64,000 nt of DNA from Magnetococcales bacterium DCbin4 (GTDB taxonomy: Bacteria > Pseudomonadota > Magnetococcia > Magnetococcales > UBA8363), in contig PEAN01000010.1 in NCBI GenBank assembly GCA_002753735.1, positions 6,937 through 70,936 on the forward strand, given 5' to 3'. The translations under genes were made by a program, and so were the position numbers. Shown here one piece after another: positions 1,471 through 47,195 of the stretch. Below the pieces are notes generated by a model that saw nothing but the letters and a program-made list of their open reading frames with translations, was not told where the DNA came from and did not search any database. The number at the start of each line of letters is the position of its first letter. Position 1 is the stretch's first letter.

Positions 1471-2112
1471 TCATGCCTTGGCACCCATTTTCTTCTTGAG
1501 TTCATCTAAGAAGCGCCTCGCCCAAGGTGACGCAGCACTGATCTTGCCTGGATCTATTATTGCGAGAAGTTTGAACGAATGCTCGCCTTTGCCATAGGGA
1601 GCCTTCGTCTTGCAATTGCCGCTCGCCTTGTCCAATCCATCATAGATCTGGGGCTTTAAAACACCTTCAATCGCATTCGCAGCCGCAGGAAGTAAATGAC
1701 TCTTGAAGCCCTGTCCGAAGAACTCCTTCAGAACATCGCGATCAGCAAGAAACCAACTTTCCATGACCTGCACCATGAGGTGACAATCAGTATCAAGACT
1801 GCCGTTGGGCTTTTCCCAACCATCGCCTTTGCGTTGCTTCAGGTGCTGCCATGGAAGCCACGTCTCGGGTTTCGCCGAATCCGACTGATACTCTGCGGCA
1901 ACAGACTCCTCGCTATCCACAAGCAGCATCGCATCTTCACCATGGCTGATCGCCGTGCAGAAAGACTCGTAGGCGTCTTTGCGGCTGCCACAAGCGACAA
2001 CCCGCGGACGCATGTTCAGTCCAGCATGGGTGATGAACGTCGAGAAACCCTCACGGCATGCTGCCTTAAGGGCAGCGGTATCGCCGCCACCTTCTACGTA
2101 GCGTTTTACCAA
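1471..2112 (-). CDS. DUF4276-like protein, putative TOPRIM-related partner of the upstream ATPase
   Basis: 213 aa. N-terminal YVEGGGD and later MLLVDSEE acidic motifs resemble a TOPRIM-style Glu plus DxD/E pair. The start overlaps the stop of the ATPase gene by 7 nt. Confidence 0.6.
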   Translation of the reverse strand: MVKRYVEGGGDTAALKAACREGFSTFITHAGLNMRPRVVACGSRKDAYESFCTAISHGEDAMLLVDSEESVAAEYQSDSAKPETWLPWQHLKQRKGDGWEKPNGSLDTDCHLMVQVMESWFLADRDVLKEFFGQGFKSHLLPAAANAIEGVLKPQIYDGLDKASGNCKTKAPYGKGEHSFKLLAIIDPGKISAASPWARRFLDELKKKMGAKA

Positions 2113-3281
2113 CGGACCCCCCCGATCTCACCTCGCGACCATAACTGCCCAAGGCGATATTTTTCAAGCCACGGTTTCAGTTTTTCGGCGTCCAGGCGTT
2201 CGAGCGTCGTACCGTTCTCAGTACGTCCAGCAACCAATATGGCTTCAGGCATGTCCGTCATCGCATCCACCAGGACATCGGAATGGGTCGTGACAATGAG
2301 TTGGGTTCGCTCGGAAGCTTTTTTCAAAAGCTGCGCCAAAGTCGGCAGAACATCGGGGTGCAGGCCAAGCTCCGGCTCCTCGATGCACACCAGAGGTCCC
2401 GGATTGGGGTGACAGAGGATCGCCAACAAACAAAGGTAGCGCAGTGTGCCATCTGAGAGACGGGTCGCAGGGATGGCATTGCGCCCCTCGTGGAAGAACA
2501 CTTGCACCGTTCCGCCTTCGATCTGGACATCAAAGTCATCGATACCGTCATACAAGATACGTAAAGCCTCCAACAACCGCTTCTTGACGACAGGTTCTCT
2601 GCGTAGGCGATTCAGAACCAAGCCGAAGTTGCTTGCATCGAGTTCCAAGTACTCGTTAGGTAAATCTGCCTTTTGTGGAAGGCGCTGCACCGTGTTGCGA
2701 CCGAAGTTCCATTCTCGATACAGCCGGAACTTGCTGAAGGTATTGCCCAAATAGGTCAGTTCCGGATACTGGTCCGGATCCTTGCGTTGCGACAAGATGG
2801 ATGCCGTGGGTTCGATCTCTTCATGTTGCAAGCGACGCTGCTGACCCTTGATGTTCAATACACCATGGCCATTTTCAAATCGGTAGTAGAAATACGGGCG
2901 AGCATGGCCATCATCCGTTTTTTCATTTTCGACATATTCATCAATGATTTCAAAACGCTGCCCGACCTCTGAAAAACTCAGGACATAACGGAGATCAACC
3001 GACCCCTTGGGATTGTCGAATACGGCATTGATCTTGGCGACGGGGATTTTGGCCGCGCCCTTCCAAAGCCAGTCTCGTACACCACCACCATCGCGAATAG
3101 CGGCGAGCAGATTGGATTTTTCCGAGGTGCTTGGGGCGGATCGAATGAGATCAATCGCTTCAATCAGATTGGATTTGCCCGATCCATTGGGCCCAATCAC
3201 AACGTTAAGCTGCCTCAGTTCGATGGGTGACGACGTCTCTCCAAAACTCAAAAAATTTTCGAGATGAATCGATTTAAGCAT
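2106..3281 (-). CDS. SMC/ABC-type AAA ATPase (AAA_21/AAA_15-like)
   Basis: MLKSIHLENFLSFGE, Walker A GPNGSGKSN, signature-like LSDGTLRYL, Walker B LVCIEEPELGLHP, H-loop TTHS. Start trimmed to the ATGATG at 3284/3281. Confidence 0.8.
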   Translation of the reverse strand: MLKSIHLENFLSFGETSSPIELRQLNVVIGPNGSGKSNLIEAIDLIRSAPSTSEKSNLLAAIRDGGGVRDWLWKGAAKIPVAKINAVFDNPKGSVDLRYVLSFSEVGQRFEIIDEYVENEKTDDGHARPYFYYRFENGHGVLNIKGQQRRLQHEEIEPTASILSQRKDPDQYPELTYLGNTFSKFRLYREWNFGRNTVQRLPQKADLPNEYLELDASNFGLVLNRLRREPVVKKRLLEALRILYDGIDDFDVQIEGGTVQVFFHEGRNAIPATRLSDGTLRYLCLLAILCHPNPGPLVCIEEPELGLHPDVLPTLAQLLKKASERTQLIVTTHSDVLVDAMTDMPEAILVAGRTENGTTLERLDAEKLKPWLEKYRLGQLWSRGEIGGVRW

Positions 3282-3438
3282 CATGACGACACCCATTGAA
3301 TCGATTACGAACCGAAATCCCCGCTGAGACGAATTCAGGGGGATTGGACCGGGCAGCGATTTCATAACCGAAACGCCCCAGATCAGATCGCGTTGATCTG
3401 TCTTCAGCAAGGGGGCACCCACTGGGACAGTTCATGAT

Positions 3439-6348: not shown

Positions 6349-7749
6349 ATGCCCGGGCAGTTGTTCGCAGAAAAGGGTGCGACGGGAACAGGCCCGCTGC
6401 AATTGAAACCCCTTTGGATCATCCTCCTGAGCCTCTGGGCATTCCTGTTGGCCAGCGGTTGTGGTGGTGGTGACCGCACCAAGGATACCACCAGCAGTGA
6501 TTCCCCCACGTCCTCTTCGACCTCCTCGACCGCATCAACCTCATCCACCTGGTCCATCGCGGAAAAGAATGATTTCGTCCTGAGCCGCATGCGTGAATGG
6601 TATCTGTGGTACGATCAAATCCCCAGCAATCTCAACAGCAATAACTATTCTTCACCGGAAGCGGTGTTGGAAGCGGCAAGATACAAAGTCAAGGACCAAT
6701 GGAGTTATATCGCATCCCTGCAAGAGATCACTGCACAACTGTCCACGGGTGAATTCACCGGCATCGGAATCCGTACTTATCTGGATGATTCGATCAAACT
6801 TTGGGTCCGTCAGGTATTTCCCTCCTCACCCGCATCCACGGCTGGAATTCTCCGGGGAGATCGCATCTTAGGCATCAATGGCCGTACCGTCGAACAGATT
6901 CAGGCCGATAACGCTTGGGATCAGGCATTTGGCGCTGATTCCCCCGGAGTCACCATCACGCTGAACCTGTTGCGCTCGGGGGCGACCAAACTTGACATCA
7001 AGGTTACCAAAGCGACCTTTTTCGTCAACCCGGTTTATACCAGCAAGGTCATCCAGCAAGGCAGTACCAAAATCGCTTATCTGGCCTTTGATGCCTTCAC
7101 CAATGCCGCCTATCCCTCCATGCTCGATGCCTTCAATGATTTCAAAACCTCTGGCGTCACGGAAATGGTATTGGATCTGCGCTACAACTCCGGCGGGCTG
7201 GTTGACATTGCCGCCTATCTGTCCAGCCTGATGCGAGACGCCTCGGACAAGGATACCTTTGCAATTTTGAGCTATAATAATCGCCATACCTCCTCCAATC
7301 AGACCTTGAACTATACCCGGATGTCCTCCGATCTGAATCTTTCACGCATCTTTGTAATCACCACTTCAGCCACCTGCTCGGCCAGCGAAATGGTCATTCA
7401 GGGGTTGAAACCCTTCATTACCGTCGTGACCGTTGGTTCGACCACCTGTGGCAAACCGGTGGGGATGGATCTGGTTCCTTTCGATGATTTGGTTTTGGCT
7501 GCAATCACGTTCAGAATCACAAACGTCAACGGCGAGACCGATTATTTTGATGGCCTATCCCCCTCCTGTGCCGCCACCGATGATCTTTCACATGATTTGG
7601 GTGACACCAGTGAATCCTCACTGGCGGCTGCCTTGTCCTTTATTGCCCGTGGCAGCTGTCCTTCATCGACCAAACGCCTGCTGCCCAGGAATACCATGAC
7701 GGCCCTGCCACGCAGACTCCCCGATATGGGATGGGACGGCATGTGGTAG
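6349..7749 (+). CDS. S41-family peptidase lipoprotein with PDZ domain
   Basis: Lipobox LLASGC. Ser/Thr-rich linker. PDZ-like GIGIR...VRQVFPSSPASTAGILRGDRILGINGRTV. S41 core LDLRYNSGGL and TSATCSASEMV. Confidence 0.75.
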   Translation: MPGQLFAEKGATGTGPLQLKPLWIILLSLWAFLLASGCGGGDRTKDTTSSDSPTSSSTSSTASTSSTWSIAEKNDFVLSRMREWYLWYDQIPSNLNSNNYSSPEAVLEAARYKVKDQWSYIASLQEITAQLSTGEFTGIGIRTYLDDSIKLWVRQVFPSSPASTAGILRGDRILGINGRTVEQIQADNAWDQAFGADSPGVTITLNLLRSGATKLDIKVTKATFFVNPVYTSKVIQQGSTKIAYLAFDAFTNAAYPSMLDAFNDFKTSGVTEMVLDLRYNSGGLVDIAAYLSSLMRDASDKDTFAILSYNNRHTSSNQTLNYTRMSSDLNLSRIFVITTSATCSASEMVIQGLKPFITVVTVGSTTCGKPVGMDLVPFDDLVLAAITFRITNVNGETDYFDGLSPSCAATDDLSHDLGDTSESSLAAALSFIARGSCPSSTKRLLPRNTMTALPRRLPDMGWDGMW

Positions 7750-8017: not shown

Positions 8018-9778
8018 ATGGCAAGCATGCTCCGAAAAATGCGTTTCCGCACTTTGATTATTCTTGTGTTCACCATTTCATACAGCGTCTTAGATCGGGT
8101 GATCAGTCTGAATTTTCGCGCCATCGGCGAAGTCAGGGACATGGGCCGACAATTACATAATGGCCCGATCAAACAACAGATTTTTTGGCAGGATATCGTC
8201 TTGGGTGTGCAAAAGGCGGAAGGGTTACGGCACCAATTCAGGCTGGACCACCATGCTGAAACGGTGCAACAGATGGAACAACTGGTAACAGAAATCAAAG
8301 GATCCTTGAGCACGCAGGGTAGCAAAGGTGACCAGAATGCATTTTTCGTGATGGTTGAATTGGATCAATATCACAAAGAATTCCTCGAACTGGTCGAAAC
8401 CCGAACTCAGTTGGACCAGTCCCGGGCGCAACTGGTCAAGAAACGGGAAGGGGTGGAAACCCTCATCTATGAAGCGGACAACGCTGGACTGGAAAAAGCG
8501 TTGGAAGAATTCATCATTGTCGAAATGACCTTTTTTACCGAGACCTCTTCTGGAGCCAAGATCAAAGGGGTACGGGTCATGCTGGATCGGCTGGATCGAG
8601 ACGGGGCTTCGATCAAAGATGAAAAGACCCGGTCTGGCCTGACCCGGGCGGTATCAGAATATCGAAAAGAATTCAATGCGCTTCTTGATTTTCAGGGACA
8701 AATGGCAAGCCGTTCCGAAGCCTTGCGCGACAGTGCCCAGCAGATGGTGAAAGATGTCAATGCAAGCACGGAACAGTCGCGCAACGAGGCGGAAACCGCA
8801 GCTCAGGCAGCCGACCAAATGGCACAGGATGCCCGCATGACCGCGTTGCTTTGGACATCCATCGGCATTGTCATCTCATTGCTGATGGCCGTGGGATTCG
8901 AACGCCGGATCAATCATCAGTTGGGTAGTGACCCGATTGAACTCGTGAATATTGTTCGTAACGTTGCGGATGGCAACCTGGTGGATGCGGTCAACAACAC
9001 CTGTGAAGGAACATCGGGTGTGATGTGCGATCTGCGGGGCATGTCGGTGCATTTGCGCTCGACGGTCACCGAAGTATTGGAAATCGCCCGGGGTGTGGAT
9101 GAGGGAGCCCAGGAAATGACAACCAACACCCGTATTCTGACCGATGGTGCCGTTGCCCAGGCCACGGCGATTGAACAGACTTCGGCAAGCATGGAAGAGA
9201 TCACGACCCTGGTCCGTTCCAACAGTGAAAGTGCCCGGCAGACGGAAGAAAAGGCCAATCAGGCAGCAACCGAGGCCCAGGAAAGTGGGACTGCGGTCAG
9301 TCGGGCGGTCAATGCCATGCGCGACATTGCCGGACGGGTGACGATCATCCAGGAAATCGCCCGCATGACCAACTTGTTGGCCTTGAATGCCGCCATTGAA
9401 GCGGCGCGGGCGGGAGAGCATGGGCGAGGATTTGCAGTCGTTTCATCCGAAGTGCGCAAACTGGCACAACGCAGTCAGGTGGCGGCGGGTGAAATCGATG
9501 CCTTGGCCAATTCAAGCCTTCAGGTGGCTGAGGATGCGGGTAATCGGATCCAAAGACTCTTGCCCACCATTCTTGAAACGGCCGAACAGGTTCGCTCCAT
9601 TGCTGCGGCGGGAAACAATCAGGAATCACATATTGGCCAAATCGATCAAGGGATCAAAAAGTTGGAGGCTGTGATCATGGCAAATCGTGAAGCGACTGAA
9701 CGAATTGCCTCCACAGCGGAGCTTCTTTCACAAAAGGCGGCACAACTCCCTGAAGAGTTGTCATTCTTCCGGGTTTGA
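8018..9778 (+). CDS. methyl-accepting chemotaxis protein
   Basis: N-terminal TM helix, roughly 250-aa periplasmic region, second TM ([18 protein letters not shown]), HAMP. Signalling hairpin [34 protein letters not shown]. Confidence 0.9.
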
Positions 9779-9925
9779 ACCCTGTTCAAAAAATAAGGCT
9801 CTTCCAGCGTTAGATGTGGTTGAATTGTGGAACCATTGCAAAACAGTCACTTTTTCTACTTTATCACATTCATTGATCAGGGATTATTGACAAAGTAGAA
9901 TTACAAAGCGTGAGGCATGACCAAA

Positions 9926-9945
9926 TGCGGCCCCGAAGGGCCGCA
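9926..9945 (-). terminator. GC-rich hairpin just downstream of the G/W-rich protein gene
   Basis: TGCGGCCC-cgaa-GGGCCGCA, a perfect 8-bp stem 13 nt after the stop at 9958. Only a weak T tract follows on the minus strand. Confidence 0.4.
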
Positions 9946-9957
9946 CGGTAAGACCTG

Positions 9958-10440
9958 TTATTGTTGCTGGGCAGCAGGAGCCGCTTCTTCGGCACCCTGG
10001 GGAGCCGCAGCGGGAGGAGCACCCCAACCGGGAGCACCACCCCAAGCACCCGGACCACCCGGACCAGCCGGACCGCCCCAAGCACCCGGACCGCCGCCCC
10101 AACCACCCGGACCACCCCAACCACCCGGACCACCCCAACCACCCGGATATCCGCCGTAAGGGCCGTAGCCATAACCGTTGTTCCAACCGTTGTTATTGTT
10201 CCAACCGTTGTTCCAACCATTATTGCCCGATCCGCCACCATCACCGCTCATGTTGAAACCGAAATTACCGGACGCACGACCGTTGCCAGTGCCGTTGCCG
10301 TTGTTCATCCAATTATTTCCCCAGTTGCCATTGTTATAGCCGGGGCCGTTACCCCACCAAGCCATGGCATCATCAGCGTTCATCATCACGACGCCCCCCA
10401 AAAGGGCCGCCACGGCCAACGTGGTCAATGTCTTCTTCAT
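9958..10440 (-). CDS. secreted Gly/Trp/Asn-rich repeat protein (sulfur-globule-protein-like architecture)
   Basis: Signal peptide MKKTLTTLAVAALLGGVVMMNADDAMA. Then WWGNGPGYNNGNWGNNW, central GNFGFNMSGDGGG, GWNN repeats, GGPGGW x3 (18-bp DNA tandem at about 10099-10150). Ala/Pro/Gln tail. Confidence 0.8.
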   Translation of the reverse strand: MKKTLTTLAVAALLGGVVMMNADDAMAWWGNGPGYNNGNWGNNWMNNGNGTGNGRASGNFGFNMSGDGGGSGNNGWNNGWNNNNGWNNGYGYGPYGGYPGGWGGPGGWGGPGGWGGGPGAWGGPAGPGGPGAWGGAPGWGAPPAAAPQGAEEAAPAAQQQ

Positions 10441-10510
10441 AGATTCGTTTCCTTACTCACATGGTTGATAAAAAAACACAAATCAAAAAATTCACTACCT
10501 TTTGAACAAA

Positions 10511-10933
10511 CTACCATCCCCAACCGCCGGGGCCACCCCAACGTCCAGGACCCCAGCCACCTGGACCACCCCAATTACCAGGACCCCAACCAACCGGACC
10601 ACCCCAACCCCCCGGGCCCCAGCCATTGTTACCCCAGCCATTGTTGCCCCAGCCATTGTTGCCCCAACCGTTGTTCCAACCGTTGTTCCACATATTGTTC
10701 CAGCCATCGCGGGTCAATCCTTCGAGATCCCCCTCCATGGTGAAATTCAAACGCGCCGTACCCCGCCCCCGACCATCGTTATTCCAATTATTTCCCCAAT
10801 TCCCCCCCCCATTGTTCCAACCCGGACCATCACCCCAACCCGGTCCCCACCAGGCAACGGATTCACTGGAAATCAGCATGCCAATGACCCCGATCAGAAC
10901 GGCCAAAACCGTCATTTGCAATTTTTTATTCAT
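10511..10933 (-). CDS. secreted Gly/Trp/Asn-rich repeat protein, paralog of 9958..10440
   Basis: Start at ATG 10933 (MNKKLQ) preceded by GAGGAG. Signal peptide ends SESVA-WWG. Central LNFTMEGD. GNNGW x3 (15-bp tandem at about 10619-10699). GGPGGWG repeats. Ends GGWGW. Confidence 0.8.
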   Translation of the reverse strand: MNKKLQMTVLAVLIGVIGMLISSESVAWWGPGWGDGPGWNNGGGNWGNNWNNDGRGRGTARLNFTMEGDLEGLTRDGWNNMWNNGWNNGWGNNGWGNNGWGNNGWGPGGWGGPVGWGPGNWGGPGGWGPGRWGGPGGWGW

Positions 10934-11116
10934 CCATCGACTCCTCATCCCGACAAAAAAAAAGCACCTTCCCCAGCAGCCCGCCAAAACGCCCTGGGGG
11001 TCTCAATGTCTCCAAAATATTCGTGTATGGACTAAAAACTAAAACAGGAATAAAGGTGGAAAAGAACAACCCAAGCCCTTCGTACACCCCGGCGCAACCC
11101 CACGCACCGACGTTTC

Positions 11117-11794
11117 CTACCATCGCCCCCCATCCCAATCGCCATATCCCCCATTGCCCCAGGGCCGCTCCTCCCACCCACGAGGGGGTCCATATGAGCG
11201 ATCCCCTCCCAATCCATGATCTGGGGCGCCCATATTGGGATTCACCGGAGAACCGTCACGGCCAAAACGCCAATCTCCACCCTCAGGACCTGCCCACCCG
11301 CCTGGATCGTGTTCCCAAGGGGCGATTGCTCCGGAACCATAATAATTCCGCCTCCGTTCCCAATCCCAATCGGCATGGGACGAAGAAGAGCCCCAAGGAT
11401 CATATTCCATCAAAGGCGAATTCCAATACCCCCACTGATTGGCACCCCATGGATCATACATGGGCACCGGTGTTCGATACCGATAGACATTCCTTCCATT
11501 TCCTTCAACCGGGCCATACCTCCGTTCATCAGCCTGCGGCGCATACCTGCCATCAGAAGCGCCTGCACTGCCCCGGTTCCCATCCACCCCTCCGGTCACA
11601 CCGGCATCACGCTTTGCACCGGACTTGCCCATTTCCTGCATGAAAGATCCCATGAACCGGCCAAACCGCTCACCCATATCCTGCAACTCACCATGGGCCG
11701 GAGCTTCACCACAATGGCCAAGTCCATTCCATAACAAAAGCACCTGAAAGAAACACCCAAAAACGATCAACCGTGTCATCAAGCTTTTTACCAT
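11117..11794 (-). CDS. secreted low-complexity W/G/D/R/P-rich protein
   Basis: Hydrophobic N-terminus MVKSLMTRLIVFGCFFQVLLLW. Then YDPWGANQWGYW, EYDPWG, DWDWERRR, GGDWRFGRDG. Ends DWDGGRW. Start uncertain (11794 or 11779). Confidence 0.6.
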   Translation of the reverse strand: MVKSLMTRLIVFGCFFQVLLLWNGLGHCGEAPAHGELQDMGERFGRFMGSFMQEMGKSGAKRDAGVTGGVDGNRGSAGASDGRYAPQADERRYGPVEGNGRNVYRYRTPVPMYDPWGANQWGYWNSPLMEYDPWGSSSSHADWDWERRRNYYGSGAIAPWEHDPGGWAGPEGGDWRFGRDGSPVNPNMGAPDHGLGGDRSYGPPRGWEERPWGNGGYGDWDGGRW

Positions 11795-11981
11795 GGCTCC
11801 CGGCAAGAAATGTTCCCTTTCCCTGTGTAAAATCCAATGCCATCGCCCCCATTTTATTATGACCACCATGCCACCTGAAAACCAGGATATATATTTTGAA
11901 TTTTTCATTATTCGAATATTATAAAATTCTAATATACAGACTGGGAGCACACTTTGCAAGAAAATAATCGGCGTTCCATCC

Positions 11982-12659
11982 TCATTTTTTCACCCCATCC
12001 GCCTGTGGAGGGGCACTGACTTTCTGAAATCCCGCCGGTAGATCAAACAAGGATTGAGGTTGCGCACCCTGTTTAAGGTTTTCCATATTCACTTCCAGGC
12101 CATCCACATAGGCTTCACGAATGGCAATTTTCAATCCAACATCCACCCACATCCGGGCATAAGGTTCAATCGAACCACCAGGGGCTGACGAACGCAACGA
12201 AATATCCCATAAACGGGTTTCACGCCCACCGATTGCCTGAACCCCCATCTCCCTGCAAACGAACTGAGGATCCTTGCGACACGGACTTTCCTGTTCATCC
12301 GGCATGGGTGGGCGACCGATGACCATCCCCTCGCTGACCGTATATACCTTCTGTTGCGGAAACAACGTCCAAACCAATTTTTCTTCGGGTTTGAAGATCA
12401 TCCATACCTTCTGTCCCGCCCGTTCACCTTCAGTCCGGACACCATGACGTCCCACATACATCCTTCCTTGGGTCACCCTGTTGTTTTCCTTTGTGTTCCT
12501 TCGCACAACATCCGCCGAAAATTCGTAAACCTCTGCGTCACCCTTTTCCGCCGCCGCTGCCAAGGTTGGCAGCCCGGCACAACAAAATACAGCCAAAAGC
12601 ACACCCCGAACCCACAAACGCTTAAGCGCCGAAGAAACCAATTGAATCGTAAAATTCAT
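11982..12659 (-). CDS. hypothetical periplasmic protein (ordinary composition, possibly LolA-like fold)
   Basis: Signal peptide LLAVFCCAGLPTLAAAAE. Globular composition unlike its neighbours. No motif I can name. Start set at MNFTIQL (12659). Confidence 0.55.
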   Translation of the reverse strand: MNFTIQLVSSALKRLWVRGVLLAVFCCAGLPTLAAAAEKGDAEVYEFSADVVRRNTKENNRVTQGRMYVGRHGVRTEGERAGQKVWMIFKPEEKLVWTLFPQQKVYTVSEGMVIGRPPMPDEQESPCRKDPQFVCREMGVQAIGGRETRLWDISLRSSAPGGSIEPYARMWVDVGLKIAIREAYVDGLEVNMENLKQGAQPQSLFDLPAGFQKVSAPPQADGVKK

Positions 12660-12954
12660 GAAATTCTGCCTGTGGAGACGATTGACCGGTATTGACATTC
12701 AAATAACAAAAAATGATTGGTAAATTGCATCAAGTCCATATTATGATTTAATACCATCACGGCAGCCTTGTCACACGATTTAAGATTTAAATAAAAAACA
12801 CCAGTTGGTTGAGGACAGGGCGTTGTCACGCATGATTGACCAATCACCCAAATTTCGGATCTCAAGCATGCGCCTGACAGGACGGAAACAACGCATAACT
12901 TGCTGGCGACTGGAAAGCAGGAAAACAATGTTTTTTACCATTCACCCGTTGGCA

Positions 12955-13386: not shown

Positions 13387-13728
13387 TCATCGCCGAAAAG
13401 CATCATCACCCCTGAACCGCGGTCCCCCCCCTGAAAGATCCTCCTCATCCTGCCACTCCAAAGGGACTTCACCCCAAGGCCGCACCGATTTCTGACGTGT
13501 CTGCGGCACAACCACCTTGTCCCCATCCTGATGCATCACGGCAGGCCACCCATATCGGGCACTTCCGGAAGCCGAAGGCGATGAAGTTCCATTCCGGCCG
13601 GTTGCCTGCGCGCCATCAGGGCGAATACGATATAAACCACTCCCCCAGGGGAGATCACCCGCCTGCCCCCACGCAGCAAAGGCCAATACCAATGCGACCG
13701 TCATTGAAATCCGAGAAAACGTCGACAT
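13387..13728 (-). CDS. small secreted hypothetical protein
   Basis: Signal peptide MSTFSRISMTVALVLAFAAWGQA. W/G/R/D-enriched mature part (DLPWGSG, RYGWP, RPWGEVPLEW). Confidence 0.55.
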   Translation of the reverse strand: MSTFSRISMTVALVLAFAAWGQAGDLPWGSGLYRIRPDGAQATGRNGTSSPSASGSARYGWPAVMHQDGDKVVVPQTRQKSVRPWGEVPLEWQDEEDLSGGGPRFRGDDAFRR

Positions 13729-13808: not shown

Positions 13809-15047
13809 TCATCGCCACGGACCACGTACCGACCCCCCATCGGGATAATAACCACCCGGCCAGGAATAGGGATCATATCCCGGTCCATATCCCAAATCAT
13901 TCCCACGAAAGCCATCCCCTGGCCTCATCCACCCATCATAAGCAGGATTCAACCCCGGACTCGGAATCTCCCAGCTTCGATCACCACGATTCTCCCACCC
14001 CCCCGTCCACGAAAAACTGGAACCGCTTCCATTGCTTCCCATTCTCGAATCACCCACCCCCCCAGGGGCCACACGTCCCGGATGATCATCGCCATACTGC
14101 GGCCGATAAGGTCCGGAACCATATTCATAAGGATTGGAATCATAGGCCGTTCCCCTGCTTGGATCATCACCCGAACGCCCCTGATCAAGCCTCCCCGCAT
14201 CACCCGAATCGCGGAAACGTCCCTCCCCAACCTCGTCCTGACGAAAGCGACTCCCCGAAGGAGGATAACCATCATCCCGGTATCCATCTCCAGACCAACG
14301 CCCCGTCCCATCAACCGCACCACTTCGACCATCGCCCCAGAACCCCCGTGGCGGTTCCGCATGGACATCACGGCGCTGCTGCTTGCGCAAAAAATAAGGG
14401 TCAATCTCACGACGAGGGTCCAGCGTTTCCGAATCATAGAACTGATCCGAAGCCCCTGATCGATCAAAGTCGAAACGCCCCTCCCCGGATGAATCCCGCT
14501 CCGATCCCGATCCCACCCCCCGATCCTCACCAAATCTTGGATCGGGCAGTTTGCCATCACCATACCTCGGATCGGGCAGTCTGCCATCACCAAACCTCGG
14601 ATCGGGCAGTTTGCCATCACCAAACCTCGGATCGGGCAGTTTGCCATCACCCTCATTGCGAAATTCAGGCGGTGGATCCCAATAACGACTCCCCTCACCT
14701 GTATTCCAGCCCCACCCACGATTAGAGGCCGCCGGTGACGGTTGCCCAGTCGTGGTGGACTCCTTCCAACCATATACCCGATGTTCCGTACCAGCACCCG
14801 AAAAACCAACAGTGGCAGGATCGCTCGGCGATCCCTTCACTCCGGAATCATTGCCTTCTCTTCCTTCTTCTCCCATCCTTTGCGAACCGGAGGTGGAAAA
14901 CCGCTCCCCGGAGCTCACTGGACCCTGAACAACCGCCCCTTTCCCTGCCCCCGTTGCAGAAAATTCTCCGGCGGTGCCCACGACCGGGATCAAACCCAAA
15001 ACACACAGAACGAAAGGCAATGACTGTGCGCATGAAATTGGGCGCAT
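13809..15047 (-). CDS. secreted low-complexity G/D/R/P/W/Y-rich protein with decapeptide repeats
   Basis: ATG 15047 overlaps the RND stop (TGATG). Signal peptide MRPISCAQSLPFVLCVLGLIPVVGTAG. GDGKLPDPRF x4. Ends SVRGPWR. Confidence 0.7.
   Translation of the reverse strand: MRPISCAQSLPFVLCVLGLIPVVGTAGEFSATGAGKGAVVQGPVSSGERFSTSGSQRMGEEGREGNDSGVKGSPSDPATVGFSGAGTEHRVYGWKESTTTGQPSPAASNRGWGWNTGEGSRYWDPPPEFRNEGDGKLPDPRFGDGKLPDPRFGDGRLPDPRYGDGKLPDPRFGEDRGVGSGSERDSSGEGRFDFDRSGASDQFYDSETLDPRREIDPYFLRKQQRRDVHAEPPRGFWGDGRSGAVDGTGRWSGDGYRDDGYPPSGSRFRQDEVGEGRFRDSGDAGRLDQGRSGDDPSRGTAYDSNPYEYGSGPYRPQYGDDHPGRVAPGGVGDSRMGSNGSGSSFSWTGGWENRGDRSWEIPSPGLNPAYDGWMRPGDGFRGNDLGYGPGYDPYSWPGGYYPDGGSVRGPWR
14538..14652. 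repeat. 30-bp tandem repeat, about 3.8 copies, inside the coding sequence
   Basis: yGGATCGGGCAGTyTGCCATCACCAwACCT repeated head to tail. Encodes GDG(K/R)LPDPR(F/Y). Confidence 0.9.
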
Positions 15048-18000
15048 CACACCTCCTCGACGGTTCCTTCACCCGGATTCTTCGTCTTCAAACGAATCCC
15101 CCGCCGACCTCCGGTTGCCCCTTGCCCCTTGGATCGCCCCTGCGTTTGTCGCGAGGAAACACCCACATCCGCAGACTCAGGTTCCTTGACCGGCTCCAGC
15201 TCCTTGGGATCAAGCGCCACGGTATCCCTCTCAGCAACACCCGGGTGTTCACCCATGCCCACTTCTTCGACCATCTCCCTGGTCTGAGATTCATGATGAG
15301 TCGGTTCAATCTGATCTGCAACTGCCTCGCGTTCCTGAACCACAGCAGCTTCCTGAACCAAAGCAGCTTCCTGAACCACGACAGCTTCCTGAACCACGAC
15401 AGGCTCCTGAACCAAGACAGCTTCCTGTCCGACAGGATCTTGGACCTCGGCAGCCGCTTTTGGTTCCAACTCAATCTTGGCAGGTGATTCTTCGACCTGT
15501 ACCTGAGCGACCGTTTCCTGAACCATCACCTCGGACACGCCATCAGATTCCTTCGCCACGGCAACATCAACCTTGGGTTTCCGTGAGGTTGACCTCCCTT
15601 TTCCAGAACGCCGCCCCTTTTCTTCCACATCGTCACGCGCAACCTCCTTGCTTGCGACGATCTTGCGCAATTCGCTCTTGGCCCGGGTATAGGAATCCTT
15701 TTCCTCATTCACCGTTTCACTTTCACGCCATTCCACCGGAGCCGGGAGGTCAGGATCACATGCGGCACTGGCCCTGGCCGTCGACACACCACTACCCGGC
15801 CTGGCGAGGAAGCTTTCCGGTTCAGGGTGAACAAAACCACTCTGAGCCGTCACACATCCCAGGGGGATCACCAATAATGTCAACAAGGTGGAAACCAAAG
15901 CACCGAACAACAGCGAAATGGCCATCCCCTGAAAGATGAAATCCCCCAAAATCACGCTCGACCCCGCAACCAGGGCAAAAGCGGTAATCAGGATCGGACG
16001 TGTTCTGGCCTTACACGAAAGAATGACCGCATCCCGTACCGATACCCCTTTGAGGATCTCCTGTTGGGCGAAGTCGACCAACAGGATGGAGTTGCGCACG
16101 ATGATCCCCGCCAACGCAATGAAACCGATCATCGAGGTTGCGGTAAACTTGGCATTCAACAGCCAATGCCCGGGAATGATTCCCAACAGCGTCAACGGGA
16201 TGGGAGCCATGATGATGGCAGGGAGGATGAAGTTGCCAAATTCCCAGACCACCAACATGTAGATCAAAATCAAGGCGGCCCCAAACGCCATCCCCATGTC
16301 ACGGAAGGTTTCATAGGTCACGGTCCACTCGCCGGTCCACTCGAAACCAGACTGACTGTAGTTTTCCGGCGGCCCAAAATAGTTCCCTGAAATGGTCACG
16401 CCATCGGGCGTCTTGTACGTTGCGAGTTTCTCCTCGATCTCCGACATTCCATAGATCGGGGCATCCAAACGACCCGTCACCTCACCCGTGACGAACTCCA
16501 CCGGTCGTAAATCCTTATGGTAGATGATGGGATCTTGAAAATCCTTGATGAAACGTCCCAACTCACCCAATGGAATCGCCGTCCCATCCGGCGCAGAAAT
16601 GGGCAGGTCACTCATGCTGGATACCTTGGAACGAATTTCCAATGGGACCTGAAGGACAATGTAGGTCGGCTCCAGAATGCTCCCCCCTTTCACGTCACCC
16701 AACTGGGCCCCCCCCATCGCCATGGCCAGATTGCGATTGATGGCATCGACCGAGATACCCCGGCGTACCGCTTTTTCGGTATCGACCTCAAAGCGCCAGA
16801 ATTCATACGTTTGCTGGATGTAATTATCCACATCGACAATGCTTTCCGCTTCTTCGAAAAACCGGGTCATCTGTTCTGCCACCTGACGCCGGATCACAGC
16901 GGTCGGACCGGTCACCTCTGCCACGACCGACTGCAACACCGGCGGTCCGGGAGGCATTTCCACAACCTGAATGCGGGCACCCACCTTCTGGGCATAGGGG
17001 GTCAGGAATTCCCGGGTCGCCACCGCCAGATCATGACTGGTCCGTTTGCGATCACGCTTGTGCAACAGTTGCACCTGAATATCGGCCTCCCATGAATTGC
17101 GGCGCATATAGTAATGCCGCACCATCCCGTTGAAATTGAATGGCGAAGCGGTGCCGATATAAGTTTGCAAGGCCGTCACTTCGGGAACCTGACTCTTGAT
17201 CATTTCGGTCATGCGATTGGCCACATTGACCGTCCGTGGCAAAGCGGTCCCCTCGGGCATGTTGATGACCACATTAAACTCGGGTTTGTTGTCCAACGGC
17301 AGAATCTTCACCGTCACGTCAGTGGTATAGAACAAAAACATCGAACCAAAAAATCCCGCCACCAACAAACCCAGAAAGGCAAATCCCTTCACCCGGCTAT
17401 CCAACAGGCTGGGGATGATCCAACGATAAAACCGCTCCAGCCGCTCGACGCTCCGATGTTCCTTTTCCGAGTGAATGTGCAACGAACGCATGCTGGGTTT
17501 GATGAGCTGCGCCAGCCACGGGGTGAAAATGAACGCGGCAAACAATGAGAACAACATCGCCACCGACCCCAGCGCTGGAATCGGCTCCATGTACGGACCC
17601 ATCATCCCGCGGACAAACCCCATCGGCAGCAGGGCCGCAATCACGGTAAAGGTGGCCAGGATCGTGGGATTGCCCACCTCCCGCACCGCATCAATGGAAA
17701 TCAGATGACAGCATTGGTCTTCCAACAGCCAACGCCGATAGATGTTTTCCACCACCACAATGGCGTCGTCCACCAGAATACCGATGGAAAAAATCAGCGC
17801 GAACAACGAAACCCGGTCGATGGTGTACCCCAGGATCCAGGCGGCGAACACCGTCATCAGGATCACCACCGGGATCACCACCAACGTCACGATGGCCGGC
17901 TTGAACCCCAGGGAGTACCAGACCAGGAAGGTCACGGCCATGGTGGCGATCAACAATTTGAACAGCAGTTCGTTCACCTTTTCGTTGGCGGTTTCGCCAT

Positions 18001-19102
18001 AATTGCGGGTGACCGAAACATACACATTGTTGGGAATGAGATGCCCCTTCAACTCTTCCACCTTGGCCAACACCTGATTGGCGACGGTCACCCCGTTGGA
18101 GCCTTTTTTCTTGGCGATGGCCAGGGTTACCGCTGGAACGGAATTGGCCGCAGGGGTTTCCCCCTTGTAGGCGGGCCCGGTGGTGTAGGTCACCATCTGT
18201 TTGGTCTCTTCCGGTCCGGAAAACACCTGGGCCACATCCCGGACATAGACCGGCGAGTTGAACCGGGTTCCAACCATCAGCCGTGAAACATCCTGGGCAC
18301 TCTTGAGGAAGGATCCGGTATAGACCGTGAATCCCTGGTCGCCACTTTCAAGATGACCGATCCCCTGTTCGCTGTTGGCCGTCTTGATGGTTTGCGCAAT
18401 CTGGTCCAGACTGATCCCGAACCCCGACAACCGCTCCGGAAACACCTCCACCCGAATCTGCTCCGCCCGGCCACCGACGATAAACCCCTGGCTGGTATTA
18501 TCCACCTGTTTGATCTGTTGCAGCACATCCAGGGTCAAGGCACGCAAGGCACTGTCGTTGACATCCTCGCTCCACAAGGTCAACGTGACGATGGGAACGT
18601 CGTCCACCGCCTTGGGCTTCACCAGCGGCGGATTCACCCCAGGCGGAACCTTGTCCATGTTGGATTCGATCCGGTCGTACAACTTGACCAGCGATTCCTC
18701 CATATCCTGGCCGACATCAAACTCCACCGTGATCATCGCCTGCCCCCGCATCGATGCGGAATAGACATGCTTGACCCCCGATATTTCACTCATGATCCGT
18801 TCCAACGGATCGGTGACCAATGTCGCCACCTGCTCCGAAGAGGCACCGGGATATTGGACAAAAATATCCACCATCGGTACGGAAATCTGAGGATCCTCCT
18901 GGCGCGGCGTCAATAACAACCCCATCAACCCCATCGCCAGACACGCAAACAAAAACAACGGCGACAATGGCGAATGAATGAAGGCCTTGGCCATGTTGCC
19001 GGCCACGCCAAGGTTATGGTGAGGCCCTTCCATTTTTTCGGGTGGAGGAGGCAACTGACTACCTTTGGAATTGGAGGCTTTGGTCATGGTTCTTGGTTGC
19101 AA
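15047..19102 (-). CDS. RND efflux transporter permease (AcrB/AcrD/AcrF family) with long C-terminal low-complexity extension
   Basis: 12-TM RND layout with two large periplasmic loops (PMVDIFVQYPGAS..., GILVDDAIVVVENI, IALAGIIVRNSILLVDF). About 266 extra acidic residues follow the last TM. Alternative start at 19087. Confidence 0.85.
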   Translation of the reverse strand: MQPRTMTKASNSKGSQLPPPPEKMEGPHHNLGVAGNMAKAFIHSPLSPLFLFACLAMGLMGLLLTPRQEDPQISVPMVDIFVQYPGASSEQVATLVTDPLERIMSEISGVKHVYSASMRGQAMITVEFDVGQDMEESLVKLYDRIESNMDKVPPGVNPPLVKPKAVDDVPIVTLTLWSEDVNDSALRALTLDVLQQIKQVDNTSQGFIVGGRAEQIRVEVFPERLSGFGISLDQIAQTIKTANSEQGIGHLESGDQGFTVYTGSFLKSAQDVSRLMVGTRFNSPVYVRDVAQVFSGPEETKQMVTYTTGPAYKGETPAANSVPAVTLAIAKKKGSNGVTVANQVLAKVEELKGHLIPNNVYVSVTRNYGETANEKVNELLFKLLIATMAVTFLVWYSLGFKPAIVTLVVIPVVILMTVFAAWILGYTIDRVSLFALIFSIGILVDDAIVVVENIYRRWLLEDQCCHLISIDAVREVGNPTILATFTVIAALLPMGFVRGMMGPYMEPIPALGSVAMLFSLFAAFIFTPWLAQLIKPSMRSLHIHSEKEHRSVERLERFYRWIIPSLLDSRVKGFAFLGLLVAGFFGSMFLFYTTDVTVKILPLDNKPEFNVVINMPEGTALPRTVNVANRMTEMIKSQVPEVTALQTYIGTASPFNFNGMVRHYYMRRNSWEADIQVQLLHKRDRKRTSHDLAVATREFLTPYAQKVGARIQVVEMPPGPPVLQSVVAEVTGPTAVIRRQVAEQMTRFFEEAESIVDVDNYIQQTYEFWRFEVDTEKAVRRGISVDAINRNLAMAMGGAQLGDVKGGSILEPTYIVLQVPLEIRSKVSSMSDLPISAPDGTAIPLGELGRFIKDFQDPIIYHKDLRPVEFVTGEVTGRLDAPIYGMSEIEEKLATYKTPDGVTISGNYFGPPENYSQSGFEWTGEWTVTYETFRDMGMAFGAALILIYMLVVWEFGNFILPAIIMAPIPLTLLGIIPGHWLLNAKFTATSMIGFIALAGIIVRNSILLVDFAQQEILKGVSVRDAVILSCKARTRPILITAFALVAGSSVILGDFIFQGMAISLLFGALVSTLLTLLVIPLGCVTAQSGFVHPEPESFLARPGSGVSTARASAACDPDLPAPVEWRESETVNEEKDSYTRAKSELRKIVASKEVARDDVEEKGRRSGKGRSTSRKPKVDVAVAKESDGVSEVMVQETVAQVQVEESPAKIELEPKAAAEVQDPVGQEAVLVQEPVVVQEAVVVQEAALVQEAAVVQEREAVADQIEPTHHESQTREMVEEVGMGEHPGVAERDTVALDPKELEPVKEPESADVGVSSRQTQGRSKGQGATGGRRGIRLKTKNPGEGTVEEV
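15332..15429. repeat. 18-bp tandem repeat, about 5.4 copies, inside the RND tail coding region
   Basis: TTCCTGAACCAnrrCAGC units. Encodes the hexapeptide-periodic run QEAVLVQEPVVVQEAVVVQEAALVQEAAVVQE. Confidence 0.9.
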
Positions 19103-19490: not shown

Positions 19491-20726
19491 TCAGAACGAA
19501 GGTGATGGTTTTTCCTCTTCCTTGTCCTTGCCCTGCTGGGTATCCCAGCCTCCGATCATCCCTGCGGGTGGCTCGGCATAAATCTGCTCCCCAACCTGAA
19601 GCCCCGACAACACGCTGACCGAATCGGTTTCCACAAAACCACCCAGCCGGATCATGCGCAGTTCGGGTTCCTTCCCCGGCGTCACAATCAAAACCGCCGG
19701 CAGAGAACCGCGCCAGCTCACCGCCGACTTGGGGATGACAGGCAGACTGCGCACCGGGGTGGTGACGTCAGGAATCATCACCTCGGCATACATTCCCGGC
19801 CCCGCCGGAGAACCCTTGGCCAGATCCAGCTTGACCGTCACGGTATGCCGTTGCGGATCGGCCATGGGAAAGACCTGAGCCACCTTGGTTTCCGCTTCAA
19901 CCCCCCCGACATCAAGCTTGGCCGGAATCAACATCCCTTTTTTGACACCGGGCATGAGACGCGCAGGAATGTCCACCTTGATCTGAAGATGCCGGGTATC
20001 GGCAAAACTCAACAACGGCATCCCCGGCTGCACGGTATCGCCAAGTTCGATATGCTTGGCAACGATCACTCCGGCAAACGGGGAAATGGAACGGGTATCA
20101 CGCAGTTTGGCCTCCAGCTCCTGAAGCGCCGCCTGCGCCTGTGTCAATGCGTAACGGGCCTGGTCGATCTGGGTCCCCTGGGCATAGATCTGCGCCCTCC
20201 GGGTCAGTTCGGGACTGTCCAGCCCGATCATGTCGGACATGGGACGGGTCATCACCCGATCAAACATGCGGGGCATGTCCATCCCCATGTTATCCGAAGC
20301 CATGCTCGAACCCGAATAAACCTGACGGGTATACTGCACCCGGGCATTGCGCCAATTGGCGGTTGCCGTTGCCAATGCCGCCTGCGCCGATCGGCGCTTG
20401 GCCAGCAGGTCATCCTCGTCCAGGGCCACCAACACCACCCCCTTCTTGAACCAATCCCCCTCCACCCCGGCAATGTATTCCACCCGGCCGGGCATCTGGG
20501 CGGCAAACGACACCTCCCGATAGGGAACCACGGTTCCCCCCAGGGTCGTGGTTGCGCCGATGGCCGCTTCCCCCACGGTAATGATCCGGTGCCCACCTCC
20601 CGATGCTGCGGTGCCAACGGTTCCACTACCGGAAGCACTTTCGCCGGCTGCCCATGGCACATCGGGTCGAACAATCCAGACCGCAAGCGCCAGCAACAGC
20701 GCCATCAATGTGATCAATGTCCTCAT
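19491..20726 (-). CDS. efflux RND transporter periplasmic adaptor (MFP/HlyD family)
   Basis: Signal/TM MRTLITLMALLLALAVWI. Lipoyl-like, coiled-coil and beta-barrel layout (GGTVVPYREVSFAAQMPGRVEYI, ALTQAQAALQELEAKL, SISPFAGVIVAKHIELGDTV). Confidence 0.8.
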   Translation of the reverse strand: MRTLITLMALLLALAVWIVRPDVPWAAGESASGSGTVGTAASGGGHRIITVGEAAIGATTTLGGTVVPYREVSFAAQMPGRVEYIAGVEGDWFKKGVVLVALDEDDLLAKRRSAQAALATATANWRNARVQYTRQVYSGSSMASDNMGMDMPRMFDRVMTRPMSDMIGLDSPELTRRAQIYAQGTQIDQARYALTQAQAALQELEAKLRDTRSISPFAGVIVAKHIELGDTVQPGMPLLSFADTRHLQIKVDIPARLMPGVKKGMLIPAKLDVGGVEAETKVAQVFPMADPQRHTVTVKLDLAKGSPAGPGMYAEVMIPDVTTPVRSLPVIPKSAVSWRGSLPAVLIVTPGKEPELRMIRLGGFVETDSVSVLSGLQVGEQIYAEPPAGMIGGWDTQQGKDKEEEKPSPSF

Positions 20727-20839
20727 GGAACAAACCACCTCGCAAATCAGGAAGGGGATCCACCCATCATGACAGTAAATGGAAGCGGCCCGAAAAGACG
20801 CTTCAAGGCAAAACCTTCAGGGCGAATCGGCGCCCGGGT

Positions 20840-21235
20840 TCACACGCGTCCCATCACCGAAAAGGATTTGATGAATGGCGCCGCCATTCGTGGATCCTTG
20901 ATCATGGCACCGTAATCCCCCACGTTGAATTTAAGCTTGCGTGAGGTATAGGCCATGCCAAGACCCATCATGCCGATCCCTTTGGAAATCCATTTTTCCC
21001 AGTTGGCCTTGCTGGCGCGCAGATCCCAATTGAGGGGTTCTCCGTCGTAGGGACCGCTTTTGACGACCTTCCCCTTTTGCACCACAATCACACCGACGGG
21101 TTTGTCATCACCCTCGAAACCGTAGGCAATCGTCGAATTGAAATCGATTTCAGCCAGGGCATCGGAAAGTTCCTTTTCCTTATTCCACTCTTCCTGAAAA
21201 CGGGTCATCCATCCTGCGGAAAACAATTCGGCCAT
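20840..21235 (-). CDS. SCP2 sterol/lipid-binding domain-like protein
   Basis: 131 aa. ATG 21235 preceded by AAGGAG. SCP2-like pattern MAELFSAGWMTRFQEEWN...RASKANWEKWISKG...YTSRKLKFNVGDYGAM. Assignment by resemblance only. Confidence 0.5.
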   Translation of the reverse strand: MAELFSAGWMTRFQEEWNKEKELSDALAEIDFNSTIAYGFEGDDKPVGVIVVQKGKVVKSGPYDGEPLNWDLRASKANWEKWISKGIGMMGLGMAYTSRKLKFNVGDYGAMIKDPRMAAPFIKSFSVMGRV

Positions 21236-21428
21236 TTCAGCTCCTTTTCCTGTCATCAGATAGTTACACTGTACTTTTTCAATATGAGGATGTTTCTTGG
21301 TTTTATTAATTATTTCAAACGTTCCCTTTCATCCTGAAAGCGGTTCAACATACCGCATCACAGCCTGTTTGACAATCCTGAACTTCCCCTTCGGGGCAAA
21401 AAGTGGCTGTGGCGTGATGCAGTGAATC

Positions 21429-40731: not shown

Positions 40732-40807
<76 letters not shown>

Positions 40808-47018: not shown

Positions 47019-47129
47019 CCAGATCCCCCATTTTCCAAGTCGTGTTGGTAACAATGAATTGTTCTGGCACCAAAGGAATCGGCTACAATTCGGTAACGTG
47101 TATGATGACCAGGGCTTCCAACATTTTGG

Positions 47130-47149
47130 CCCCCCCCCCCCCGGGGGGG
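47130..47149. repeat. homopolymer tract C13 followed by G7
   Basis: ggCCCCCCCCCCCCCGGGGGGGatg read directly. Intergenic, between the helicase stop (47196) and the HD gene start (47018). Confidence 0.95.
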
Positions 47150-47195
47150 ATGATTGATGATCATTTTGGTCGTGATTTGTTGTCACAGGGAAAGT

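Follow-up and report, generated by a model that had tools for sequence, protein, structure and literature searches.

Tandem tryptophan- and asparagine-rich relatives of sulfur globule proteins in a Magnetococcales bacterium

The DNA analyzed here is a 64,000-nucleotide stretch from Magnetococcales bacterium DCbin4 (assembly GCA_002753735.1, contig PEAN01000010.1, positions 6,937 to 70,936), referred to in full as the window, in which two adjacent genes, designated A and B, encode small secreted proteins rich in glycine, tryptophan and asparagine. Several lines of comparison tie A to the sulfur globule protein (Sgp) family and B to A. In our assessment the two proteins probably form a Magnetococcales-specific, compositionally shifted branch of the Sgp family that coats periplasmic sulfur globules. 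Magnetotactic cocci are abundant sulfur oxidizers at oxic-anoxic interfaces and their sulfur globules are well documented; A and B offer a concrete candidate for the globule coat of these organisms, with two proteins per cluster.

Results and Discussion

A and B are genes under purifying selection

Both frames lie on the minus strand (Table 1), adjacent and of the lengths (160 and 140 amino acids) that a sequence-only reading of this DNA had reported, and products of these lengths are also called independently in four NCBI assemblies. In the mechanical list of open reading frames (ORFs), B reaches back to a TTG at 10987; its 140 residues are counted from MNKK. A putative Shine-Dalgarno sequence, read from the DNA, precedes each ATG: AAGGA at 10450-10454, 9 nt ahead of the start of A, and GAGGAG at 10941-10946, 7 nt ahead of that of B.

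Long ORFs occupy both strands between 9870 and 11035, the antisense ones in repetitive G+C-rich DNA, and in such a repeat-rich region A and B might themselves be chance open frames. Codon alignments with the orthologs at a locus in another Magnetococcales metagenome-assembled genome (MAG), L013, speak decisively against this. The nonsynonymous and synonymous divergences were dN = 0.09 and dS = 1.1 for A (omega, their ratio, 0.08) and dN = 0.13 and dS = 2.1 for B (omega 0.06), values which indicate that the minus-strand frames are coding and under strong purifying selection, and which, with dS above 1, refute the idea of chance frames. The ribosome-binding sites, the signal peptides, conservation across the order and homology to a known family all point the same way, leaving that explanation with virtually no probability. 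A and B are real genes.

Each protein carries a predicted Sec-type signal peptide that would be cut before an aromatic residue. The signal peptides were judged by eye from their n-, h- and c-regions and from the family-wide conservation of the A-x-A↓WW junction (alignments A1, A3 and A4), which bears out the leader ending in A↓WWG that had been noticed from the sequence alone. Downstream of the pair, the hairpin that directly follows the stop codon of A has a folding energy of -25.7 kcal/mol (z = -3.8) and a weak U tract. It looks like a terminator; a consensus scan did not list it.

Table 1. Features of the B-A pair and its conserved neighborhood (window positions)
Feature	Position	Strand	Description
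Hairpin	9925..9946	-	GC-rich, GUGCGGCCC-UUCG-GGGCCGCAU, directly 3' of A stop codon
Gene A	9958..10440	-	160 aa, Sgp-like, A-type; signal peptide, then N-terminal part rich in N, W and G, core GNFGFNMSGD, repeats of GWNN and PGGWGG, Pro/Ala-rich acidic tail like canonical Sgp
18-bp tandem repeat in A	10036..10147	-	6.1 copies, encodes PGGWGG
Central motif of A	10240..10269	-	GNFGFNMSGD, residues 58-67
Signal peptide of A (predicted)	10360..10440	-	Residues 1-27, MKKTLTTLAVAALLGGVVMMNADDAMA↓WW; MKK, hydrophobic core, A-M-A↓WWG
Gene B	10511..10933	-	140 aa from MNKK, B-type Sgp-like paralog; module order as in A, diverged core RLNFTMEGD, without Pro/Ala tail, C-terminal Trp
33-bp tandem repeat in B	10518..10625	-	3.3 copies, encodes PGGWGGPGGWG
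15-bp tandem repeat in B	10616..10675	-	4 copies, encodes NNGWG
Central motif of B	10727..10750	-	LNFTMEGD, residues 62-69
Signal peptide of B (predicted)	10853..10933	-	Residues 1-27, MNKKLQMTVLAVLIGVIGMLISSESVA↓WW; MNKK, hydrophobic core, S-V-A↓WWG; alignment A4
g225	11117..11794	-	225-aa secreted W/G/D/R-rich low-complexity protein; annotated 'hypothetical protein'; no family match
g226	11982..12662	-	226-aa periplasmic protein with signal peptide, predicted LolA-superfamily fold
g113	13387..13728	-	Small secreted low-complexity protein; syntenic in L013
g413	13809..15050	-	Secreted G/D/R/P-rich protein, GDGKLPDPRF repeats; start overlaps RND gene stop codon
RND efflux permease	15047..19102	-	ACR_tran over residues 38-1081 of 1351; head of conserved cluster
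RND periplasmic adaptor	19491..20738	-	Membrane fusion protein
138-aa protein	20840..21256	-	Cytoplasmic-looking; between ABC-2 transporter genes and RND adaptor

A is related to the Sgp family and B to A

A phmmer search of 5.8 billion proteins with A returned 12 matches, ten of which bear the Pfam family PF17228 (SGP), with E-values from 1.7e-10 to 7e-3; one match had been named 'Sulphur globule protein' by the Joint Genome Institute (JGI). Five of the matches served as positive controls, on which PF17228 was confirmed at 33-77 bits. The alignment of A with the PF17228 proteins is colinear from end to end, running through the signal peptide, A-x-A↓WW, G-x-GPG, W-G-[ND]-x-W, G-[DN]-F-x-[FM]-x-M-S-G, the Gly/aromatic/Pro repeats and the Pro/Ala tail, and its best-conserved common block is the GNFGFNMSGD of A (GDF-x-[FM]-x-MSG).

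In proteins of such biased composition the controls matter more than the matches. On a hidden Markov model (HMM) built from ten PF17228-positive proteins, mature A scored 20.8 bits, and 300 residue shuffles scored -33 +/- 5 with a maximum of -17.7. When blocks were shuffled instead, none of 200 five-residue and one of 200 ten-residue shuffles reached the score of A on this canonical HMM. Similarly, hhalign gave 80.8 for A against the PF17228-positive proteins and 38.0 for the reversed control; hhalign scores here are for mature regions, and E-values computed with the signal peptides included overstate the relationship. Because its scores exceed both shuffled and reversed controls, A is, on sequence evidence, a genuine but divergent homolog of the Sgp family (PF17228), by a tie that runs through Pfam-positive metagenomic proteins and not through the characterized SgpA, SgpB and SgpC of Allochromatium vinosum.

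The relationship of A to B was examined in the same manner. Smith-Waterman alignment of the mature proteins scored 363, compared with 172 +/- 16 for residue shuffles and 224 +/- 25 for ten-residue block shuffles, and none of 500 shuffles reached 363; hhalign gave 128.8 against 67.9 for the reversed control. B is thus clearly recognizable as a paralog of A, and the common architecture described in the sequence-only reading holds up. Searched on its own, B found a single phmmer match (P0001, E 6e-3). It scored -11 bits on the canonical Sgp HMM, with residue shuffles at -40 +/- 5, and 68.2 against a reversed control of 48.7 in hhalign. Taken alone, B appears weakly tied to canonical Sgp, and its link to the family runs mainly through A.

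Neither Pfam nor NCBIfam gave a usable match to A or B. A rodlin match (NCBIfam NF041022; 17.8 bits, E 0.0024, cut-off 75) covered residues 1-60, mostly signal peptide, and was rejected, as was an SbtA match confined to the signal peptide.

A conserved core is embedded in length-plastic repeats

Tandem Repeats Finder (TRF) located an 18-bp and a 15-bp repeat, as the sequence-only reading had described, and units of 12 bp encoding GWNN in both genes. The 18-bp array of A does encode PGGWGG. The 15-bp array of B specifies NNGWG, not the GWGP ascribed to it; the GWGGP/GWGP stretch of B instead has a 33-bp period. The NNGWG array is missing from the L013 ortholog of B, and the PGGWGG copy number of A also differs in L013. 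Differences by whole units between orthologs imply that the repeat tracts are plastic in length, while the N-terminal half is conserved.

The central motifs picked out in the sequence-only reading are present in both proteins. When compared with the pattern G-[DN]-F-x-[FM]-x-M-S-G, A retains it as GNFGFNMSG, and B has diverged to RLNFTMEG, with the F and M kept. F64 and D69 of B are invariant across six B-type proteins (alignment A4). Both proteins possess Gly/aromatic/Pro repeats in which the aromatic residue is Trp, and a Pro/Ala tail is found in A but not in B. The composition of the mature proteins (37% Gly, 17-19% Asn, 10-18% Trp) sets them apart from PF17228-positive proteins, which have 11-15% Tyr and 1-7% Asn; Tyr makes up 3.8% of A and 0% of B. 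Lys and Arg are nearly absent from both.

The pair recurs in Magnetococcales

An exhaustive profile search of 1.84 billion representative proteins, using A, B and their two closest relatives, recovered only 30 proteins at E <= 1e-3. Most are ordinary Tyr-rich Sgp-like proteins; one, P0013, looks from its sequence like a B-type ortholog. A scan of 185,579 species genomes with alignment A2 identified ten loci, seven in Magnetococcales MAGs and three in MAGs of Gammaproteobacteria or Thiotrichaceae, the latter being tandem arrays of Asn/Tyr-rich Sgp genes. Two types can be distinguished. In A-type proteins the Pro/Ala-rich tail known from canonical Sgp is retained (alignment A3). B-type proteins do not have it, share the core NF-x-[FMV]...GD and without exception have Trp as their last residue (alignment A4).

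B is likewise followed by A at L013, L017, L022 and L023, and the equivalent position at L016 holds two tail-less copies ending in Trp together with a third, Gly/Tyr-only copy. Given this recurrence across loci, the duplication is old and both copies have been maintained. The host belongs to the Magnetococcales: positions 9958-12698 of the window are identical to contig JADFWW010000009.1 of assembly GCA_015234015.1, and the neighbor gene of the pair is annotated 'Magnetococcales bacterium'.

A candidate coat for periplasmic sulfur globules

Sulfur globules occur in many magnetotactic cocci, thiosulfate or sulfide supports the growth of cultivated strains, and Magnetococcales genomes encode reverse Dsr, FccAB and SoxYZ, with SoxXYZAB in marine strains (PMC6783814; bioRxiv 10.64898/2025.12.17.695019). 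In this setting we suggest the following model. A and B would each carry a Sec signal peptide for export to the periplasm and be cut after A-x-A, exposing a mature N-terminus of WW. By analogy with SgpA, SgpB and SgpC of A. vinosum, the mature proteins would then assemble into a thin protein envelope around globules of elemental sulfur that arise during oxidation of sulfide or thiosulfate. Trp, replacing Tyr and spaced by Gly and Pro, may face the sulfur, with the Asn/Gly backbone and the acidic Pro/Ala tail of A turned to the water. A retains the full canonical layout; the tail-less B may have a distinct role, comparable to that of SgpC in globule expansion.

A number of observations weigh against a globule coat and keep our assignment at the level of a probability. 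The 64-kb window contains no sox, dsr, sqr or fcc gene, and sulfur globules are a known trait of the order Magnetococcales, not of the uncultured host itself. With E-values up to 10 allowed, the Pfam PF17228 model matched neither A nor B (gathering threshold 26.7 bits), and among nine other relatives it was silent on eight Magnetococcales proteins and scored P0013 at 8.4 bits, below the same cut-off. A and B therefore fall outside PF17228 as now modelled, and this silence on Magnetococcales proteins explains why A/B-type genes are annotated as 'hypothetical'. Moreover, 25 of 200 ten-residue block shuffles matched the score of B on the canonical HMM, so that B alone is indistinguishable from them, and composition-adjusted BLASTP saw no significant similarity between A and B (E 4.3). 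Finally, nominal E-values are inflated in this low-complexity family: reversed hhalign controls still reached 3e-6 to 6e-12, and it is consequently the differences from controls that count, not E-values at face value. The Sgp likeness put forward from the sequence alone is supported as homology for A, where it exceeds composition in shuffled and reversed controls and is seen with the HMM of PF17228-positive proteins but not with the Pfam model; B shares in it by paralogy to A, and weakly on its own.

Sgp homologs put to another use might account for the same data. In that case A and B would be structural or condensate-forming proteins of the periplasm or envelope, acting on a non-sulfur deposit or on the envelope itself. 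The strong shift from Tyr to Trp and Asn, the failure of the Pfam model on A/B-type proteins, the absence of sulfur genes nearby and the several kinds of inclusion found in magnetotactic cocci (bioRxiv 10.64898/2025.12.17.695019) would all be in keeping with such a change. It is harder to reconcile with the retention of core motif, N-terminus and layout under strong purifying selection, and with the occurrence of relatives in sulfur-oxidizing taxa (Magnetococcales, Thiotrichaceae). In addition, we know of no Sec-exported Gly/aromatic coats on polyphosphate, nitrate vacuoles or carbonate inclusions. We consider a use other than on sulfur unlikely.

If A and B do coat sulfur globules, such a coat will have been missed because Tyr-rich members from the Gammaproteobacteria are what the Pfam SGP model is tuned to; a new model started from alignments A3 and A4 could pick up the Magnetococcales branch. 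Our literature search joining Sgp and Magnetococcales found no paper naming an Sgp gene in the order. Putative sgp genes have been stated, with reference to a book chapter, for almost all sequenced globule-forming Proteobacteria (PMC10386293), and in view of that statement the Sgp-like genes of magnetotactic cocci may already have been noticed.

The pair ends a conserved gene cluster

Upstream of the pair on the same strand are genes for a resistance-nodulation-division (RND) permease and its adaptor, and several secreted proteins (Table 1). The order adaptor - RND - g413 - g113 - g226 - g225 - B - A is wholly or largely kept in five further Magnetococcales loci, across which the identity of the RND permease falls to 68% and that of g226 to about 40%. 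g225 always stands directly upstream of the B-A pair. g226 adjoins Sgp-like genes in six Magnetococcales loci, and a g226 homolog (E 4e-10) also lies beside the Sgp-like P0010 on an unrelated metagenomic contig (locus L008). The 138-aa protein is highly conserved in L022 and L023.

No sequence match to g226 was obtained in Pfam, NCBIfam or PDB chains. Its AlphaFold 2 model, built on a 7-sequence alignment, had a mean predicted local distance difference test score (pLDDT) of 82, against 46 for a single-sequence model, and Foldseek against the PDB matched it to EPDR1, LolA, RseB and LprG (E 7e-8 to 1e-5, probability 1.0, template modeling score 0.4-0.6). The model thus predicts an open beta half-barrel of the LolA superfamily. 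An invariant Cys pair is formed by C128 and C136.

These neighbors raise the possibility that the B-A pair closes a cluster dedicated to sulfur-globule biogenesis throughout the Magnetococcales, comprising an ATP-binding cassette (ABC) transporter of the ABC-2 type, the 138-aa protein, the adaptor, the RND pump, two low-complexity proteins, the LolA-fold carrier, g225, B and A. On this account the RND pump and the LolA-fold protein would move zero-valent sulfur, polysulfane species or hydrophobic coat proteins, and the extra low-complexity proteins would be new components of the globule envelope. To our knowledge, only scattered coat-protein genes have so far been connected with globule assembly, and such a cluster, if real, would be the first genetic module for the process. 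We regard this extension as rather doubtful. The clear cases all come from one order, the pump side is replaced at L002, and A-type genes occur without the RND/LolA cluster at L012, L014 and L015. Nevertheless, the LolA-fold carrier, the RND pump and the low-complexity proteins are testable candidates for globule-assembly machinery.

The same arrangement would also suit A and B as clients of the RND/adaptor/LolA-fold cluster, sent to the outer membrane or the cell surface as a hydrophobic layer or matrix. Gene order conserved in five further loci is what one would then expect, as is the predicted LolA-superfamily fold of g226, which is characteristic of proteins that carry hydrophobic cargo in the periplasm. 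Moreover, a C-terminal aromatic residue is a feature of outer-membrane proteins, and the terminal Trp of every B-type protein recalls it. However, synteny inside one order may reflect inheritance, and the replacement at L002 and the cluster-free A-type genes count against clients as they do against biogenesis. Since, in addition, no outer-membrane factor or secretin was recognized in the cluster, we think it distinctly improbable that A and B are its surface-bound clients.

Small, Gly-rich, secreted products encoded within 13 kb of ABC-2 and ABC ATPase genes and an RND pump also invite comparison with glycine-rich antimicrobial peptides or bacteriocins exported by these transporters. The leaders of A and B, though, are ordinary Sec signal peptides and not of the double-glycine kind; no C39 peptidase or immunity gene was recognized, A and B matched no Pfam or NCBIfam bacteriocin family, and their homology points to SGP. 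An antimicrobial function is accordingly given hardly any weight.

With regard to the individual neighbors, the Pfam ACR_tran match to the RND permease ends at residue 1081 of 1351, leaving a C-terminal extension of about 270 aa that is poorly conserved in L013, and none of the curated NCBIfam RND models comes anywhere near its cut-off, which indicates a divergent type. Pfam gave no match to the 138-aa protein or to the g225-like, g113-like and g413-like proteins; a suggestion that the 138-aa protein is SCP2-like was dropped for want of Pfam support. g225, g113 and g413 are syntenic across Magnetococcales, and C-termini of W, WR or WQ are common among them and their orthologs; the three may be further components of the envelope. 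At L002, which is near-identical to L001 and L004, unrelated LysR, hydrolase and nuo genes take the place of the RND cluster upstream of an 87-aa gene, through either rearrangement or mis-assembly of the MAG.

Other genes vary around the Sgp-like loci. In several Magnetococcales loci the Sgp-like genes are closely followed by a gene for a P-loop ATPase of the ParA/MinD/CbiA type: L012 (10012-10686), L014 (9483-10127), L016 (9668-10387) and L022 (10989-11669). The window pair has no adjoining ATPase of this type; a methyl-accepting chemotaxis gene (8018-9778, plus strand) converges on it instead. On metagenomic contigs, Peptidase_M48 genes stand directly beside the Sgp-like genes P0001 (L005, 765-1649) and P0010 (L008, 1591-2727) and have no counterpart beside the window pair, and a Peptidase_S41/PDZ gene (6349-7749) is located about 2 kb from A.

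Other genes in the window

A defence-like run on the minus strand (45465-53387) encodes an HD-domain protein, a DEAD/Lhr-type helicase, a BrxC/BrxD-family ATPase (PF10923, E 2e-151) and a large TerB-N/TerB/TerB-C protein. At 1471-3422, also on the minus strand, an AAA_21/AAA_15 ATPase gene (438 aa) is followed by a 213-aa ORF whose equivalent at L003 is annotated DUF4276; the two form a module of a kind often linked to phage defence. tRNA-Asn(GTT) at 40732-40807 (minus strand) is the sole RNA gene detected in the window by Rfam and ARAGORN.

Comparison with known systems

The globule gene sgpD of A. vinosum (SgpD, Alvin_2515) adjoins an RND-type exporter of the hydrophobe/amphiphile class, and mature SgpD begins with Trp (PMC10386293), as A and B are predicted to do. 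A biogenesis cluster of the kind discussed above would echo this adjacency, although the parallel may be a coincidence. SgpD is reported to be helical or coiled-coil and restricted to Chromatiaceae, in which it differs from A and B. In the same neighborhood, g226 resembles LolA, RseB/MucB, LprG and EPDR1 in its predicted fold and in having a signal peptide, without a match to that superfamily at the level of sequence.

Also comparable with A and B are the tandem Asn/Tyr-rich Sgp arrays of Thiotrichaceae and Gammaproteobacteria MAGs (L018-L020), whose products are likewise small and Sec-exported, with N-rich N-terminal parts (WWGDNGYNNNNWNNNW...) and a GNFGFNM core; the protein encoded at L018:8513-8860 scores 54.5 bits on PF17228. 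These proteins differ from A and B in their C-terminal halves, which are canonical Tyr/Pro repeats, and in having no detected LolA-like or RND neighbors.

The globule envelope of A. vinosum is formed by SgpA, SgpB and SgpC, extremely hydrophobic proteins exported by Sec. SgpA and SgpB can replace one another, globule expansion is influenced by SgpC, and no globules arise in a mutant that lacks both SgpB and SgpC (PMC10386293). SgpC (Alvin_1325) is a second, differently built envelope protein and a possible functional analog of B, or of the Gly/Tyr-only copy at L016. It is by this analogy that A and B would be physically present in a globule envelope.

A close parallel is offered by the SgpA/SgpB type (PF17228; Alvin_1905 and Alvin_0358, with relatives in Chromatiaceae and Thiotrichaceae). 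Like A and B, these proteins are small (about 10-13 kDa when mature) and share a Sec signal peptide with the cleavage site A-x-A↓W(W), the WWG-GPG N-terminus, the core motif, Gly/aromatic repeats with spaced Pro and, in the case of A, the Pro/Ala tail. Unlike them, A and B have Trp largely in place of Tyr and abundant Asn (GWNN, NNGWG, PGGWGG), and their host belongs to the Magnetococcales and not to the Gammaproteobacteria. Whereas the sgp genes of A. vinosum are separate transcription units (PMC10386293), A and B are tandem paralogs that close a conserved cluster. If both branches coat sulfur, the shift from Tyr to Trp and Asn on a conserved scaffold would provide a natural experiment on the chemistry of a sulfur-wetting coat.

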